A DNA stretch of 64,000 nucleotides, taken from the NCBI RefSeq assembly GCF_002571385.2, contig NW_019217831.1:299885-363884 (forward strand). The letters are read 5' to 3'. The DNA comes from Stylophora pistillata (Eukaryota). This document shows, in pieces, positions 43,189 to 63,858 of the stretch (position 1 is the stretch's first letter; every line of letters begins with the position of its first letter). The notes beneath the pieces are model-generated. The model saw only the letters and a program-made list of their open reading frames with translations, had not been told where the DNA came from and ran no database searches. The position numbers were made by a program, and so were the translations under genes.

Positions 43189-44313
43189 TCACACCGCATC
43201 TATCCCGTCAGACGATTTCGACACATTCTTGTTCATACGATTCGAGTGACTGTCCACTCCGTAAGACGCGGAATGTTTGAGAGTTTTCTCAGTTTGAGTC
43301 GAAGGGAAAATAACATAGGCAATTACCAAACATAGCAAAAAATCTAGCATGCGGCTCACTGTTTGGTAACCCCACCATGGCCAGTGATCGACAACACTCT
43401 CTCCTTCCGCGAAATCGTAGAGTTTGTACAACGAGAAAAGCGAATAAAGTTCTGCACCGACGTTTAGCAGCGCGAGAATCGAAACGAGGCCAGAAATTCG
43501 AGCGATTTTTTGCGCCCCTTTCGAGGGTTTGTTTTGATCGTTGTTAAAAGTTTTTGCCTGTTCGACTGTGATATTAGAGCTTGGGTTGAGCGAGGAAGTA
43601 GAGAGCGTCGAAGCGATTCGTTCCTTCGCCATTGTATTGTTGAAGAACTTGGCTGTGATTTGCGATTCCCAGTTCACTTTCCAACCACTGTACAAGAAGC
43701 ACACCGCCAGGATCAACCACCAGGAAATTAACACCGTTTGGCATAAAATTAGCAAACGGGCGAGCTTCGGTGCCAGTGTTATTACTAAATACACGATTAA
43801 CACTACCACAAAATGCGTCGCAATCACCGAAACCAGAAACTTGATATTTTGAAGACGACGTGAAATCAGTCGAAGTTTGTTTACCTCGAGGAAAGCGAAG
43901 TGTATCAAGGATAACGCTGATGTTAAGCAAGGATACCCAATGGCAAAGAGAATTCTGCTTAACAACACAGGAAGATCCAAGATCGTGTGCGATTCGTACG
44001 GGTCGAGGAACAGGTACAGTGTTCTTGAGACACAAAACGTCATTAACATCACACAAACGGCAAGAAAGTAATTTCCCAAAGTCATACCTTTGGCTCTGTG
44101 TTTGATTTTTACAACGCAAATACAAGAGAAAACAGCCACGCCGAAGAACAGCACTCCAAATCCGATGTAGTGAAGTTCCCATAGAGATTTCCAATCTTTC
44201 AGCGCAACATCCCAGTCGGGAAGAGGTTCAGGGTTTGGAGGAGCAGACATCCCTGGCCAGGGTTCCGCTCTAGCTTTTGCTTTCGTCGCTGTTTCAGGCT
44301 CTGCTGATGGCAT
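43189..44313 (-). CDS. Multi-pass (about 7 TM) membrane protein, PRRT3/PRRT4-like
   Basis: Uninterrupted ORF of 386 codons from TTG 44349; first ATG at 44313. Pro-rich lead PEPLPDW..WELHYIGFGVLF, then hydrophobic helices, LYLFLDPY, and WPWWGYQTVSRMLD before the last helix, recalled as PRRT3/4-family motifs. True 5' end uncertain. Confidence 0.8.
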   Translation of the reverse strand: MPSAEPETATKAKARAEPWPGMSAPPNPEPLPDWDVALKDWKSLWELHYIGFGVLFFGVAVFSCICVVKIKHRAKGMTLGNYFLAVCVMLMTFCVSRTLYLFLDPYESHTILDLPVLLSRILFAIGYPCLTSALSLIHFAFLEVNKLRLISRRLQNIKFLVSVIATHFVVVLIVYLVITLAPKLARLLILCQTVLISWWLILAVCFLYSGWKVNWESQITAKFFNNTMAKERIASTLSTSSLNPSSNITVEQAKTFNNDQNKPSKGAQKIARISGLVSILALLNVGAELYSLFSLYKLYDFAEGESVVDHWPWWGYQTVSRMLDFLLCLVIAYVIFPSTQTEKTLKHSASYGVDSHSNRMNKNVSKSSDGIDAV

Positions 44314-45699
44314 ATTATTGGGTTCTTGACCTCGTGGAATTCTATGCAAATTCTCAAACCTTATTTTAGAATCTAACGACCCACTTCACGTAACAATTAC
44401 AGTTCATCGATGAACGATGGCCGATTAAAACGACTCTCTCCTCCTCGATACTGTAAAGTAAGATCACTTTGTGTTTTTTTCAAGCCTTGAACAAAACTTT
44501 TGTGAATTTCTTCTCCTCCCAACCTACGTTTCAGTTATTCCCTTATTGTCTCGATCCGTTTCGTATCCTTTGTGATGCAAAACAGCTCAATTTGATTCAG
44601 CTGACTGGAACAGTGTGACGACTGGAGTCGTTTACAAATAACCTCTCGTTAATTTCTCTAACAATGACCTCAGCATTATTCAAATTCGCAAGTCAATATC
44701 ATTCCTATTTTGGTGTCAAGTGTCCCCTCTAAGAAGCGATTTGTCGCTTACGTATCTCCGTTTTTGTTTTCACAAACTTAGAATTTTCAACTTCAGGAAA
44801 AAGGCGTATATTTTTGACGTAATCACTCAAAGTTCTTTTGTTCTCGGCGTGCATCCCTAACATGGAAATTAACGTAAAATTTCCTGAGCGTTAACAGTTT
44901 TGGAAACAGCGGAGGATTAAAGCGGTATTAAACAGATTATCCACCTGATATAAGCAAATATTGATCTTTCCAGATAATCAAGTCTTTTTTCGCTAACTAT
45001 GGTAAAACGAACTTTCAATTTCTTTGAAACGAAAATAGCCGTGACTCAATCCTTCGCTTTGGCGTTCTAGAGTCGAAAGCCGGTACAACTGGTATCAATT
45101 TCCTGCTCAGAAAAACAAACTCTCCTCTCGGTAAACCTTTTACGATAAAAACTTGCCTTGAAAATTTAATTAATTTAGGATTATAAGCTGGGAAAATACT
45201 GAATGTGGTTTGAAAATCTCCAATTGTGGTTCGACGTGCTTAATTATGATGCGTGAGTTTCACGACAGAATTGCGTGTTCTTTGCCACAAGCATGGAGTC
45301 GATCTTGACAAAAGATAAAGAATTTTAATTTCCTTTTAAAAGTATTTTCCAGAATCCCAAGGAAGGTTACCAGACAATAGGCCTCATAGACGAACAAACA
45401 ATTGAATTTCGATATGAAAATCACTTAGTATATTTTTGTCGGAGTTTCATAAAATATTCATCTGAGTCGGCCCGATCGTTTCTGTTTACATTTCAATTCA
45501 GTTCCTGGTTACGGGGTTAGAAGGCGTACTTGTTCTTTTGCGTAACTGAGTTTCCTAAACCAAAAACGGTCGATTAAAGTTCCTTCTCTCAGATAGCTCC
45601 TTCCCCAAGCCAAAGCTCCAAAGTAAAAACAGGGCAAAAGAACAATAACATAATAGCAATATTTTGTAGTAGTTCTGCTATTTATTTGGGCAAGATGAT

Positions 45700-56018: not shown

Positions 56019-59000
56019 ATGGCTTCCGCTAGTGATCACGGAAACTCTATTGTCATTGAAGACGATAGCCAATTTCAGCAACAACTCCATCAAGCTGGGA
56101 ACAGACTGGTTGTGGTAGATTTTACTGCATCTTGGTAAGATTATGGATCACTATTGTTCTACATCGGGTGACACAATACACTCAAGTTACGTAATTTAAA
56201 TGCGTGAATTTGTGATTTGCAGTTGTCCGTTTTCTGAACCGAAGGTTCTGTCTTGCAGAGGGAGTTTTTCGATCGTTTTACGGCTAAGTGCGATTAAATT
56301 TTAAACCGCTATGTGTGATTAAATTTTTAAACTGCAGTGTTTAGTTTTGCCATAATTTTTCATTTTTAGTTTCCTGGCTTTTCTTTGTGAAATTTAAACA
56401 TGAAACAGACGTGAGTTAGTGCACGCACGGATAATCTAAATCATTTGTTTATGAGTGCTGAAACAGTAATATCGGAATTATAATGACCTTGTTTGAAATT
56501 ACTCCTTAGACCAAGGAACTTATTATCTTAACTGAACCTGTCTTTCTTGAAGAATATTTCAAAACTTGAGATTTCACGTACTGGGACTCTCTAGATCATT
56601 CACGGCTCGAGTTGCTACTTTTAGAATATATAAGTTAATTTCTATTCGATTAATTGATAAAGCGTATCAACTCATCGCATCAGTTTGGGTTGAAGGCTCT
56701 CAATACAGGGCGGGACCGGATGATTGATCATAGTTAACAGCTGCTCATGTCTTGTTACTTGTGCTTTTAAAACTCTTTATCTCTTTTTCATTCTTTAAAG
56801 CCTTCCACTTTTGGATGGCAGACACCTTTCTCAAATCATGAAGAGAAAACTTGTTAAAAATAAATTCAATTGATGATATTATCTGTTTTTGAAATTATCA
56901 CTCATAAATTGTAAACAATGTCTGGATATGCTTTCATCTCTGTAGATGTGCCTTAAGCAAATAAACCTGAAGGCTAACTCTCCTATCAAAATATTATCTG
57001 TACATATTCAAGAGCTTCAAAATCACATTGAAAGATGGATAGATTTGAACTTTTGCTGTGTGCCTACTAGGTGTTTCTGCAGTTATTTAAAAGTAAGCAT
57101 TTTTTTCAAAAATGAAGCCTTCTTTTCAGTTTCAATGGTAGATCTCTTCAAGGAACAGAAGAAAAGGAAATAAAGATCAGAGATAAAATATTGCAGTTTC
57201 CATTTTTATCAGAGGAAGTTTGCAATTTATTGAATCCTATTAGATTTATTAGATCTTAGACTCTGGCAAGATTTGTGACAATTAATTGTGTGATCTGTGT
57301 GGACTTGTTCATGTAGGTGTGGTCCATGCCGTATGATGGCCCCTGTGTTTTCAAATTTGAGTGTGAAATATTCAGCGGCTGTTTTTCTGACTGTTGATGT
57401 TGATAAGTGTCAGGTGAGCAAGAAATACACAAATAGAAATTGTCATTCATTGTTGGATAATTTTTGCGTAGCATGTAGTGAGAAACGAATATCGAAGAAG
57501 GTTTGAATATAAAACCTCTATACAGACTGGCCACATGCAAGAAGAAACCTTGTTCATGTATATGGTGTACCTCTTCTGTGGGTCAAATGACAGAGGATCA
57601 CCCTGCAAACTTGGAAAGTCTGTGGTTCATTCAAATGTGCACAGTAAGACCAAAGATCTTTTCTTTCTCTGACCCATGCAACAAATGTTTCACCCTTCAT
57701 TCCTTAGGCTAAATAAGGATTTCAGTTTTTCACCTTGGGCTAGGTGCTTTGGACTGTTGATGTAAACTTTAACCTTTTTAACTCCCAAGATCTGATTGTA
57801 AATTCTCCCTTCAAGCTCCTGCATTTCCCTTTGTAAATTAGTAATGAAAACTTGGTGTTGGATCAAAATAAGAATTTGCTACCTTTCTATAACATCAAGA
57901 AATGGTTAGATATTCTAGTCTTCTCGGATAAATGAATAAATGGATAAATGAATAAGTGGAGGTCCCGTCTCCTACAGGGTTGGGCGTAGGAGACGTTAAT
58001 TTCCCACACACGAGATTACTGTGTGGGGGATGTCCTCCCCCAGGGTGGGATGGGTGGGTTTCTAAATACACGACCCCACCAGCTCTGCTGAATACTCCAT
58101 TGTGTATAAATAAAGAAATCAGTCAGTCAGTCAACAGTTTGGACCTGATAAGTTTGAGTATTCTCATTACCTGTTTGCAGGATAATGTATGGATATTATA
58201 GGGAGAAGTTACATGTACATCACTTTTAGGAGTTAAAGAGTTAAACAAATGTATTCTCCTTTGGGTTTACTTAAGAATCATTGGTGTAAAATATTTTTTG
58301 TTTCATGTTATTCTTTTTCCAGAGGACTGCTGCACAGCAGGGAATCAGAGCCATGCCAACATTCTTCTTCTTCAAGAACAGAAAGAAAGTGGATGAAATG
58401 CAGGGAGCCAACCCCACAGGCCTGGAAGACAGAATCAATCAGTGGATTGGAGGGGCTGTGGAAACAACAGTAATTATGTCTTTGTTATTTGATTTTTAGC
58501 CAACCTTATATGAAAGGCATGGCGGCCTCATGGTTAGCGTGCTCAACTGCGGATCAATAGGTCTAAGGTTGAGCTGGCCGGAGACATTGTGTTGTGTTCC
58601 TAGGCAAGACACCACTCTCACACTCACAGTGCCTCTCTTCACTCAGTTGTTTAAATGGGTACCAGTAAATTTAATGCTGGGGGGGGTAACCCTTTCATGG
58701 ACTAGCATGCCATCCAGGGGGGAGTAGAAATACTCCTAGTTGCTTCATGCTACAGAAGCCAGAGTTAAGCACCAGTGTGATGGGCCACTCAGCTCATTAA
58801 CAAACTTTTTGTATGAAAGCCAGCAGGCTAGAGACTAGTGAGTTTGTCAGCTGATACACAGGGCTCAGGTAAGTTCGGGAGTGAGAAAGGGGGAAGGAGG
58901 AAGTATTCTTCTTTTGAACACAGGGGCTGGAGCAAGTTGAAGGGGGCAGGAGGTAGTGGTAGTACTCTATGCTTTGCTTTCCCAACTTTGATGCCAGCTG

Positions 59001-62000
59001 CCTACTCTTTATCTTTGATTGAAAAACCCTACAGATGATGTATGAAGGATTGTTTGCAATTTTATAGTTATCCTTCTCTTTTCACCCTTTCTTGTCCAGT
59101 CTCCTTCCTGACTTTTTTGCTGTGATTCTGTTCCCTGTCTTCTTCTGTTGTAAAGTTTCCTCTGATCCAACTGGTTTTTACAGTTTTTAATCAGAGACTG
59201 AGCACCAAAAAATTTGTCTCAACCTGAAGTAAGACTTTCTCCTGAAAATTTCGCAGTAATGTGTCTGGAGTTTTCATGAGTAAGATTGCCAAGTTCACAC
59301 CCTATACTATAGCCTTAGTCCTGATCGTTTGTGCCAGAAAAACGTGATAAAATCTGTGGGAGGGGCATCACCCCAATTGATATACACTGCATACAATAGA
59401 AGTTACAAGACACCCTTTCACATCATGCTGTCGTGACTGGGATAGGCTACTAGGCTACAGCTCTGTAGAATTTGTGTAGTGCAGTACATGTATTTGTCAG
59501 TGATCTTCTTTCTTTTTTTGCCTGTACCATTATTATGTTTTTATTTGGCTTTTCTTGTTATATTTCAGACAGTGGATCCCAAGAGAGTTGCAACAGGTCG
59601 TAGCTGGGACTGTTTTGAACAGCTACTGGACAACCCGCCAGAAGTCTTCATGGATGTGTCACAGCTCCTTCTTAAGTTTGCGTCCAACATCATCAACAAT
59701 CCTGATAATCCAAAATACCGAGCCATTAGAGTCAGCAACAAGATTTTCCAGTCACGTCTTCTTCCAGTGAATGGAGCTGTGGAATGTCTCTTCACCATGG
59801 GATTCCAAGAGGTATTACTGGAAAGAAAACTTAATTTCCATCAGGGCTATCAATAAGTTTGAAAGTACAGGCAAACCTCCACTTACAGCCTTCTTTCTAT
59901 AATGGCGACCCCTCCACAACGGTCACTTTTGGTCCCAGCAGGCTGTTCATACATTCAATTAAACCCTTGTATAACAGCCACTTCCCCACTAGGGCCACTT
60001 TCTCCTGTCCTTGGGGTGCCTGTTTGCAAACATCCTCACAATACATGCTCCTGTCCTTGGGATGGCTGTGGCGGAAAGGTTCAACTGTAGAAGGAAAACA
60101 AGATGAATCAGGTGGCCATGCTATTGTGGATGCCTTGTTATTGTGGAGGCCATGTTGTTTCAAAACGTTGTACTACAAATTTCAGGAGGTTTGATAAGTT
60201 TGAAGAAAACAGTAAAAACTGCATAATAGGCAGCTAATAGAAGTTCAATCTTGACTCAAATGTTGTTGATTTCAGAGAAAACAGCTGCTGATTTTTCTTC
60301 ACATAGATGGCAAATTTAGCTGGTTCCCAGCTCTTGTTGAAACCCTTATAGTTTGGGAATTACTCAGTTAAAATTACCTAGGTGTCCAACAAAATTTGCA
60401 CCAAGCAAATTCTGAATATGAAATAACAGAAAATGGTTACAGGTGATTTATGCATTCAGTCTCACTAAAAACTGGGAATTGGCTGGTGTGAATTTATGGA
60501 TAGTATTTTGATAGTCGTATATATTATGTTAAAATGAGGCAAAAGTAACCAGCTAAAGATAGCAATTAACAATTTGTATCAAATTTTGCAGAGAGGTGAC
60601 CAACTAGTGTGCCCCCAAGGCGAATCGTTAGAAAACATGTTAATTCTTCAGGACGCGTTGAACGACGAGAGAAGTCATCGTAGCGCTGCACAGGAACCTG
60701 AACCAACTCCAACTTCAACTCCAACTTCAACTCTAGCACCAGTTAACCAACCTCAAAACAATGGCCCTTCGTGTGGACAACCAACCATTGTTTCCAGTCC
60801 AACTGCATATCCATCGGTAATGATTTTGTCTTCTCTTCAATAACCCCTTGTTTAAGATAAGAAAAGGAGGGAGGCTTGATGCTCCGGTGGCCCTTAAGAT
60901 CAGTGGCACAGAATCGATCCCTAAATGATCATTTTGTTGGTGTTCTTTCGGACACTCAATTCGTACAGTACTCGTGTTCCTCTGGGATATAGAACCTCTT
61001 TGGGTTTTTTCTGATGCCAAAATTTTTGCAGTGGTAAGATGGCTAATTATTTCTCAACTGGCTGTCGTGAAACTGAGAGAGAAGGGATGGGGGGGGGGGC
61101 AAGGGTCTGTCGAGAATTAGTCTTGGAACCCCCCTCCCCCCATAAAAAATTCATACCCCTCTTAAGGTCCTGCAGCAAAGATTTCACTCAATTTGAATAA
61201 TTTGGATGGGGATAATTTTATTTCTATAAGAAGTTTAACGTCAGAATGATGGGTTAGGGTTCGAAAACAGCTCTACTTTCAAGAGCAATCCAAATGAAAG
61301 ATTTTTTTATTTTTGTTATTATAGGACAAGGAGAAGGACTTTCTCCTGAGACTTCACAGCTCGCTACAACATGTGCTTCTTTACGAAGATAAAGATTTGC
61401 AGCGAAGAGCACGGGAAATGATTCCTTTGGCTGAGTTAGAGAGGAAGGCCAAAGAAGCCAGTGAAAGAACAAAGCAGGGAGGGGACGGTGGAGTGGATGA
61501 AAGAGATTGCCTAGTGTTAGAAATGCTGAACTGGTTCAAAGGTAAATGCACTGTAACTATATCTTACTAGATAATTTAGTGTGTATTATCACTGAGTATT
61601 TTACGAGTCGTGGGTTCTTTAATGAGTTAAAAATACTCAGCGACTCTACATACCAAAACGTCCAACAATATCCCGCCATCTTGACCAAACAAGCTTGGTT
61701 GATAAAGGATTTATTATATTGCAAAAGGATTTCGCTTTATTAAGAACGACTTCACTTCGAGAGTCGAGAAAGAAAGCCAACTCTGTTTGTAGCACAACAA
61801 ACTCGCAAGAGTCGTTTCTATTTTTTTTTTCGGTGTGACTATTTTGGTCTTCTGCCGCTTTTTGCATTTACATCGCCGAAATACCCCAAGAATTACGAAC
61901 TTAGTTCTAATTCTTATCTTTTTCATGCGCGGGATCAATGTGGGCAATCTCAAGCATGGGCCCATCTTGCCCGCACGGGTAGCCAATCAGAATACAGGAC

Positions 62001-63858
62001 TCGCTTCATCTTGCCCACGGACGCTGTGAGCGATGAAGTAAGGTCCAATAATATAAATGTGCTACATGTTCAGTATTTCCAAGGTGGCTTAGATCAGCTA
62101 AATTGATAACGTCTTTTTCTCTATATTCCAGGTACTTTTTTCAAGTGGGTGGACAAACCTTCATGCCCGTCATGTGGTTCTCTAACGTTTGCTGTCGGTG
62201 TGGTTCCCCCAACACCTGAGGAAATGCTGTGGGGTGCTGGGAATGTAGAGAGCTACAAATGTCTAAACTGTGGAAAGGTTACGAGATTCCCAAGATATAA
62301 TCATCCTGCAAAACTTTTAGGTGAGAATATGGGGCAAGATCTTTTCAATCAAGAACTCATTTTTATTTAACAATTAGATTCCATGTTGCCAAGGGTCTGT
62401 GGAGTAATATATCATAGATGACGTAAAAACAAATAAGTGGAATGAAAGGCGCTGCCGAGGTGTCACTATATTCTCACCACGTTTTGACGTCTCGTGTAAT
62501 CTGTCACTATACAGATACACGGCAATATGGAATCTATTTGTCAATCGGAGCGTGATATTGAGGGTTTCATACAGTGGCAACCTTCGGCTAGAAAGTGCCT
62601 TGACTTTTTATTTATTTATTTGTAGAAACGCGCAGTGGCCGATGCGGTGAATGGGCCAACTGTTTTACATTATGCTGTCGAGCTGTTGGATTTGAGGCGC
62701 GACACATTTTGGATTGGACAGATCATGTGTGGACAGAAGTGTATTCTGTAGCTCAAAAGAGATGGCTACACTGTGACTCTTGTGAAAACGCCTGCGATAA
62801 ACCGCTGCTTTATGAGGCTGGCTGGGGAAAGAGACTCAGTTATATTATAGCGTTCTCACATGAGCAGGTCAGTTTAGTGACTGTATTTGTAGACTATTTA
62901 ACAACAGGAGTTTTTCGATGTTAATTCTTTTCATGCTGTGCGTGTTTGATGAGGATATAGGTCTTGGATGTGACATGGCGATACTCTGCTAAGCATGAAG
63001 AGGTGAAAAAGGCAAGAAATCTAGTGTCTGAAGCCTGGTTGGTGGAGACGTTGAATAGAATGACTCTAGAGGTGAGGGCAATTGCGGGTAAATATGCGAC
63101 AATGTAAGGAAGGCAAACGGGGAAAAAAAAAAGTCCTTCAGAAAAAGCGCAGGAAAAAAAGATGAGCGGTGAGAAACAGGAACGGATAGCTGGTTAAAAG
63201 TGCGGGAAAGTGAGCAACTGATGTAAAACGCTGGTAAACGAAAAGCAAGTCAAAGTGGAAGATTTAAAAATCAATGATAATGTGGGTAAACAAATAACGG
63301 GCGAGAAAGGCGGGAAAACGAGTAACAGGCAGAAAAGGCGGGAAATCGGGTAACGGGCATAAAAGGCGGGAAAACGAGTAACGAGCAAAAATAGGCGGGG
63401 AAACGAATAACGGGCGAGTAAGACGGGAAAACGAGCAATCACCGAGTTCATTGTTGGAGATAATCCGGTGAAAAACTGTTGAAAATAAATGGCAAAAAAC
63501 GCTCACTAACTAGTATTCGGGGATAGCAAGTTAATGTTACTGTTCAAGAGTGACAATAAGCATCAATTTTTGACTAGCGACGGGCGCGGACATCTGCCTC
63601 CACTGAAAATTTAGGGGTTATCTTTCACCACCTCTTTGCTGCCCTTATCAGCTTACTAAAATAAAGTGTTCGTTTTAGCACCAAAGAAACCTTAGTGAAG
63701 CTCGGCGGAAAGTTTTAGCAGAGCGCCAGGTGAAGGAATTGGTAGAGTTCTTCACCATCAAGTCTGTTCGTCATGATGAACTACAGGGGCGAGTGTCGGG
63801 TTCTTTGGCCTGGAGGCTGCTTCGAGGCGAAACAAAACAACAAGCAGATGAACAGAAG
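56019..63858 (+). CDS. NGLY1: Cytoplasmic peptide:N-glycanase with N-terminal thioredoxin and PUB domains (3'-partial)
   Basis: Exons 56019-56134, 57317-57413, 58323-58469 (Trx: [18 protein letters not shown]), 59569-59811 (PUB: [24 protein letters not shown]), 60592-60816, 61325-61541, 62132-62320 (CPSC/CLNC Zn motifs, RFPRYNHP), 62626-62867 ([23 protein letters not shown] catalytic C/H/D), 62961-63071 (DVTWRY), 63679-63858 ([10 protein letters not shown]). All phases consistent; gene continues past the window. Confidence 0.95.
58512..58797 (+). mobile_element. tRNA-derived SINE with conserved central core
   Basis: Head TGGCGGCCTCATGGTTAGCGTGCTC, core GTGTTCCTAGGCAAGACAC..AAATGGGTACC; degenerate inverted copy at ~32055-32305. 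Confidence 0.65.
63290..63440. repeat. Degenerate ~29-30-bp minisatellite in NGLY1 intron
   Basis: AAAGGCGGGAAAACGAGTAACGGGC-like unit, about 5 copies. Confidence 0.75.

Follow-up and report, generated by a model that had tools for sequence, protein, structure and literature searches.

Coral NGLY1 is a four-domain protein in which a thioredoxin, likely copied from TXNL1, precedes the PUB domain and the PNGase core

Can a thioredoxin (Trx) and a PUB domain share one chain with a PNGase core, and if so, where did the thioredoxin come from? This question is raised by the NGLY1 gene in a stretch of 64,000 nucleotides of the Stylophora pistillata genome (assembly GCF_002571385.2, contig NW_019217831.1, positions 299,885 to 363,884 of the forward strand), hereafter the window. 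A first-pass annotation, made from the sequence alone, had described a Trx-PUB-PNGase triple fusion at 56019..60816. All three parts are indeed present in one chain, but the domains are four, since PAW follows, and although the Trx and PUB exons lie within that interval, the catalytic core does not begin until 61325 and falls outside it. Similarly, exons 1 and 2 carry the WCGPC redox site, as described, but the whole Trx domain spans three exons. The reading that we favour, with moderate confidence, is that coral NGLY1 is a four-domain protein encoded by a single mRNA, with a Trx that likely arose as a copy of the TXNL1 domain at an early stage of cnidarian evolution and that is predicted to reduce disulfides of glycoproteins while the core removes their glycans.

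The Trx-PUB-core-PAW fusion is real and is expressed as one mRNA for one chain. With 2-6% of each RNA run being read, the in-frame joint 58469^59569, which leads from the Trx exons to the PUB exon and then the core, was covered by 13, 2, 2, and 17 reads (34 in total) in 4/4 raw-read runs from 2 studies. Joints for all nine introns of the window were found in 4/4 runs (two raw-read and two contig runs), and two assembled transcripts (X12 and X3) contain Trx, PUB, and core exons on a single record. Exon translation confirmed that the Trx exons have no stop and end at the phase-0 donor 58469, as well as that the WCGPC site is intact, with the split between exons 1 and 2 falling inside the codon of Trp39 (phase 2). 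Altogether, the ten exons at 56019-63858 comprise 589 codons with zero stops, and all introns are GT..AG. The transcript-derived protein P0001 (776 residues), from a 75-member cluster, contains all four domains and is 100% identical across the PUB exon. The alternative, that the fusion is an annotation artefact created by a separate small thioredoxin gene upstream of NGLY1, draws on the fact that read-through past the 58469 donor would encode a complete thioredoxin of 129 residues with a stop at 58497-58499, and on a contig of run X12 that covers, at a low depth of 8.7 versus 343, the stretch of intron 3 from 58985 onwards and continues into the PUB exon. However, no separate thioredoxin transcript with this stop was seen, read depth being 0 in 4/4 raw-read runs both on the read-through (58470-58569) and upstream of the PUB exon (58920-59519), whereas the junction peptide aligns across corals, an anemone, jellyfish, and hydrozoans. 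The junction reads and the zero read-through depth refute the separate gene as the main form, leaving room only for a rare isoform below this depth, and we consider the artefact extremely improbable. Abundant genomic repeats at 57780-58220 (intron 2) and 58580-58770 (intron 3) attract many partly matching foreign RNA reads.

In the protein, the Pfam domains Thioredoxin, PUB (PF09409), and Transglut_core (PF01841, E-value 7e-16) map to exons 1-3, exon 4, and exon 8, respectively, and PAW (PF04721, E-value 2e-63 on P0001) starts in exon 10; the PNGase core matches the solved structure 2f4m with an E-value of 5e-102. C418, H445, and D462 are each invariant in 63/63 proteins (alignment A3), and the four CxxC cysteines ahead of this triad, C360, C363, C392, and C395, are conserved in 62-63 of 63; we take the pairs C360/C363 and C392/C395 to bind zinc. 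Y170, R174, and N177 of the PUB domain align with KYRSIRIGN of mammalian PUB (2hpl) and correspond to Y51, R55, and N58 of mammalian PNGase, the number of Asn58 being counted from the alignment. According to PMC4017264, Tyr51 and Arg55 form the pocket for the p97 tail, and the p97 peptide bound by mammalian PNGase is DDLYG; the C-terminus of coral p97 is DDDLYS. The Trx fold displays the classical thioredoxin features WCGPC, Asp34, and the Met-Pro loop, and both of its cysteines are conserved in 13/13 cnidarian rows covering the site. The earlier proposal that the protein combines p97 docking, disulfide reduction, and deglycosylation is supported as regards the single chain and the residues for these three putative functions, the WCGPC site, the triad, and the residues of the p97 pocket being intact. 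The structure model of P0001 has a mean predicted local distance difference test score (pLDDT) of 87.9 and a predicted template modelling score (pTM) of 0.58. Its core, PAW, and thioredoxin match solved structures (that of the mouse PNGase for the core) with template modelling scores to target of 0.93, 0.95, and 0.93-0.96, respectively, whereas residues 115-118 and 238-272 are of low confidence, with pLDDT under 50 in the linkers, which fits four folded domains on linkers.

Two known enzymes bracket this architecture. Mammalian NGLY1 (2f4m, 2hpl, and 2g9f) has the same PUB-core-PAW order, triad, CxxC pairs, and PUB pocket residues, with a core 54-55% identical by structure to that of the coral, but the coral protein has an extra N-terminal thioredoxin of about 110 residues with WCGPC. 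Nematode PNG-1 (Caenorhabditis elegans, Syphacia, Meloidogyne, and Pristionchus) also carries an N-terminal Trx of the WCGPC type on the core, with PAW in most cases, but has no PUB, unlike coral NGLY1, which has both.

The fusion is conserved across much of Cnidaria, in both Anthozoa and Medusozoa (stony corals, anemones, a jellyfish, and hydrozoans), and is already present in public gene models labelled NGLY1-like. The best 120 of 2317 core matches were examined for Trx, and 13 of these carry it, every one with an organism name being a cnidarian. The carriers are from Oculina and Montipora (the closest named relatives), Actinia, Nematostella, Rhopilema, Clytia, and, through its cluster, Hydractinia, as well as S. 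pistillata itself, four proteins 76-83% identical to its NGLY1, and one protein grouping with Rhopilema. The other 107 have no Trx and include two truncated coral proteins, Trichoplax, echinoderms, hemichordates, molluscs, an annelid, an insect, and vertebrates; a tardigrade, a scorpion, an ostracod, a bryozoan, a tunicate, and an octopus are further named cases. PUB and core without Trx is the state of every deuterostome, mollusc, annelid, bryozoan, tardigrade, and arthropod named in our lists, as well as of Trichoplax and the choanoflagellate Barroeca. The named sequences in our lists include no sponge, ctenophore, or octocoral, and the core tree (161 rows, FastTree), the backbone of which is weak, served only for rough placement of rows. 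In the ESM Atlas, P0001 matched nematode Trx-PNGase clusters and one chordate cluster.

What would the thioredoxin do on this enzyme? By analogy with the mammalian homologues, PUB would dock the enzyme on p97 by its C-terminal tail, a pair for which a structure has been solved, the high-mannose glycan would be held by PAW, and cleavage of the Asn-GlcNAc bond would fall to the Cys-His-Asp core; by analogy with worm PNG-1, the WCGPC site would be an active disulfide reductase. The model predicts domains strung like beads along flexible linkers, so that Trx would be a reductase on a tether, opening disulfides that are left over or wrongly formed in substrates as they come off p97; any contact of Trx with the core would be transient, of the enzyme-substrate kind. 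According to PMC8997433, the Trx of worm PNG-1 has disulfide reductase activity in vitro, and rescue in vivo depends on it. Two points weigh against such a role. First, retrotranslocation itself appears to entail reduction according to a review (PMC7563561), so that substrates may arrive in the cytosol already reduced. Second, P0073, which groups with hydrozoans, has no Trx, indicating that Trx loss occurs and that the domain is dispensable in some lineages. The main functional rival to substrate reduction is that Trx serves the enzyme itself by protecting Cys418 and the zinc cysteines from oxidation, a function that would be relevant in a host with photosynthetic symbionts. The core does need a Cys nucleophile and the four conserved CxxC cysteines, and the presence of different thioredoxin types on the same core in other organisms is consistent with any redox need of the core. 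However, the fusion is also found in cnidarians such as Nematostella and Clytia, for which no photosymbionts are known, and two linkers and the PUB domain separate Trx from the core, with no confident packing of the two in the model (pTM 0.58). We therefore regard protection of the enzyme's own cysteines as unlikely and prefer substrate reduction.

The exon structure of the gene is informative on where the Trx module came from. Among the thioredoxins encoded by the coral genome, the one nearest to that of NGLY1 belongs to TXNL1, a Trx+PITH gene (60% identity). The NGLY1 Trx and 2/2 coral Trx+PITH genes have two traits in common, a 97-nucleotide exon 2 and a phase-2 intron that splits the Trp codon preceding CxxC; the third exons measure 162 and 165 nucleotides in the TXNL1 genes versus 147 in NGLY1, all ending in phase 0. 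By contrast, this pattern is shared by 0/4 stand-alone coral thioredoxins, in which WCGPC is unbroken and the internal exons are of 60 and 63-66 nucleotides (the models of the coral thioredoxin paralogues were chained by script from genome sequence alone). In addition, at four metagenome TXNL1 loci the frames begin immediately ahead of CGPC, which is what this intron would produce. An intron pattern shared with TXNL1 and not with stand-alone thioredoxins suggests that the NGLY1 Trx is likely a copy of the TXNL1 module. The mean identity of the 13 cnidarian NGLY1 Trx domains is 49.9% to 21 TXNL1, 42.2% to 6 nematode PNG-1 Trx, and 41.5% to 4 coral TXN. Judging from these sequence comparisons, TXNL1 is the likely source of the Trx of cnidarian NGLY1, copied at an early point in the phylum, whereby the first three TXNL1 exons would have been duplicated ahead of a PUB-core-PAW gene via the phase-0 intron, independently of the nematode fusion. 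PITH, the part of TXNL1 seen bound to the proteasome (PMC12700798), is not found in P0001, and a PITH search of the genome matches other contigs only; coral NGLY1 has PUB-core-PAW after Trx instead.

The coral genome also contains a second TXNL1-like Trx+PITH gene (L024, G000:C284:39560-42720), the redox site of which is WCPFS, without the second cysteine. There are, moreover, at least 4 stand-alone thioredoxin genes (L021, L022, and L023, on G000:C40 and C413), three of which cluster in some 25 kb of a single contig; two stand-alone thioredoxins on different contigs are 85% identical.

Several results make a TXNL1 origin within cnidarians less certain. Fast sequence evolution in nematodes lowers the nematode identities. 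In the Trx tree (53 rows and 111 columns, 16 of 69 rows having been removed as divergent or redundant), cnidarian and nematode Trx fall among TXNL1 rows under LG+G4 with support of 92/87, the trees being weak overall, and this branch is lost under the mixture model, in which the coral NGLY1 Trx joins coral TXNL1 at only 92/64. The cnidarian Trx rows do not form one clade in either the LG+G4 or the mixture tree, and the approximately unbiased (AU) test does not reject a cnidarian and nematode group (p 0.22) or a group of cnidarian Trx with stand-alone TXN (p 0.07). Cnidarian Trx alone (p 0.27) and cnidarian Trx with coral TXNL1 (p 0.25) are not rejected either. In comparison with solved structures, the thioredoxin scores 107.8 bits to TXN and 101.4 to TXNL1, and these scores cannot separate the two. 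A single origin of all PNGases with classical Trx (cnidarian, nematode, P0110, and Tribonema) is weakly rejected (AU p 0.03 under LG+G4, one of five tests).

Another explanation is a single ancient fusion, in which Trx-PUB-core-PAW arose in the cnidarian-bilaterian ancestor or earlier, nematodes then losing PUB and most other lineages Trx; the first-pass annotation had similarly suggested that the coral protein may represent the ancestral animal architecture. The position of both nematode and cnidarian Trx among TXNL1 rows under LG+G4 agrees with this, as does the AU value for their joint grouping; in-frame deletion of PUB is feasible, given that exons 4 and 5 of NGLY1 are of phase 0-0; and a Trx loss has occurred inside cnidarians (P0073). 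A model from Macrostomum also has Trx-PUB-core-PAW. However, a sister model continues into an MH2 domain, which makes the gene calling at this locus unreliable, and the Macrostomum Trx shares only 31-40% identity with its nearest rows; we discounted this fusion. Ancient fusion would require Trx to have been lost separately in Placozoa, deuterostomes, lophotrochozoans, and panarthropods, the branch that places both Trx groups among TXNL1 rows disappears under the mixture model, and the TXNL1-type module fuses repeatedly, which makes a shared donor weak evidence. The suggested ancestral architecture is thus not supported, since Trichoplax, Barroeca, and the named non-nematode bilaterians, bar the doubtful Macrostomum, have no Trx. 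As for the comparison with nematode PNG-1 Trx, the two do not form a joint clade in either free tree, but the AU test does not reject their grouping, and with sponges, ctenophores, and octocorals absent from the named sample there is room for ancestry. On these grounds, an ancestral fusion appears less likely than cnidarian gain from TXNL1, and we give it a rather low probability.

Cnidarians are not the only organisms with a reductase on PNGase. The cnidarian-domain profile found Trx in 13/150 representatives, and a Pfam scan of 30 chosen proteins added a fourteenth, P0085. Carriers include, besides the nematodes (Trx-core-PAW) and Macrostomum, the ochrophytes Tribonema and Phaeothamnion and the cryptophyte Hanusia, as well as P0090, P0110, and P0213; several of the non-cnidarian fusions are transcript-derived and known from sequence collections. 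All have a CxxC reductase domain on the PNGase core, as in the coral, but differ from it in other respects. In P0085, P0090, P0213, and Hanusia the domain is of the nucleoredoxin type, a different subfamily, and in the protists a jacalin or L-type lectin replaces PAW. For instance, P0110 is Trx-PUB-core-L-type lectin (a search of the ESM Atlas with this protein gave no match), and a Tribonema isoform (P0331) is Trx-core-jacalin-PUB, with PUB at the C-terminus, unlike in coral NGLY1; PUB and a lectin accompany the Trx fold and core in P0085, P0090, P0110, and P0331. The differences in donor and in domain order suggest that Trx was gained on PNGase repeatedly and convergently across eukaryotes. 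Trx is also fused to p97-adaptor proteins with UBX or PUB (P0018, P0021, P0022, P0030, and P0032), most being nearest to TXNL1; the Trx of the UBX fusion P0018 shares 83% identity with one TXNL1, suggesting that it was fused anew in recent times. Tentatively, and with less confidence than in the coral reading, we propose that eukaryotes repeatedly and independently joined a disulfide reductase to PNGase, in many cases along with a p97-docking domain and a lectin: of the TXNL1 type in cnidarians, classical Trx in nematodes and ochrophyte algae, and the nucleoredoxin type in a cryptophyte and animal-like sequences. Disulfide reduction might then be the missing coupled step of cytosolic deglycosylation, and in mammals TXNL1 might be the partner of NGLY1 that has stayed unfused, making it a candidate modifier of NGLY1 deficiency.

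Every domain of the coral protein, the public gene models, and the worm Trx-PNGase fusion are already known; what is plausibly new is the four-domain variant of a known enzyme together with a plausible donor gene. We found no paper describing Trx and PUB together on PNGase in a search that did not extend to most of the subscription literature, the main PNGase reviews among it. In published accounts, the worm enzyme has Trx 'instead of' PUB (PMC9102325, PMC8997433) and the Trx domain is understood as unique to C. elegans (PMC6429583). The coral protein shows that Trx and PUB can share one chain across much of a phylum, whereas reviews treat them as alternatives. The model species Nematostella, Clytia, and Hydractinia offer a natural single-chain system for probing the still unexplained Trx of PNG-1, and the intron evidence, by naming TXNL1 as the likely donor, provides a testable prediction for human cells.

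Coding exons of NGLY1 in the window and the intron at the Trx-PUB junction
Feature	Position	Strand	Content
Exon 1, coding part	56019..56134	+	Start codon and first third of thioredoxin domain; joint 56133/57316 in 4/4 runs
Exon 2 (97 nucleotides)	57317..57413	+	C40-G-P-C43 redox site
Exon 3	58323..58469	+	Thioredoxin domain end (MPT loop), short linker begins; phase-0 donor
Intron 3, Trx-PUB junction	58470..59568	+	Removed in all mapped reads
Exon 4	59569..59811	+	PUB domain with Y170, R174, and N177
Exon 5	60592..60816	+	PUB end and Pro/Thr/Ser-rich linker, predicted disordered
Exon 6	61325..61541	+	First PNGase core helices
Exon 7	62132..62320	+	Two CxxC pairs, C360/C363 and C392/C395
Exon 8	62626..62867	+	Transglutaminase-like core; C418 (62643-62645), H445 (62724-62726), and D462 (62775-62777)
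Exon 9	62961..63071	+	PNGase core continues
Exon 10	63679..63858	+	Core end and start of PAW (mannose-binding domain)

NGLY1 extends past the end of the window, the remaining PAW exons being located at about 364080-366660 of G000:C48. About 4.5 kb beyond the end of the gene, on the plus strand, an NGLY1-like paralogue follows in tandem (G000:C48:371180-380460; L003:8184 to L004:7454); it has exons for the core and PAW, but near it no Trx or PUB match was found. It appears to retain the Cys, His, and Asp of the triad, but about 7 residues are missing after the Asp and otherwise invariant residues (equivalents of E465, Y474, and W478) are altered, so that it is likely a divergent or inactive copy. 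Elsewhere in the window, a 398-codon open frame on the minus strand (43189-44385) has several hydrophobic stretches and no Pfam match, and likely encodes a multi-pass membrane protein. Two copies of a similar frame on the plus strand (21058-21732 and 50709-50906), the longer without a Pfam match, presumably represent the end of a Penelope-type GIY-YIG retroelement, which they resemble. A 176-codon frame on the plus strand (1892-2422), also with no Pfam match, looks to us like a spectrin-repeat exon.

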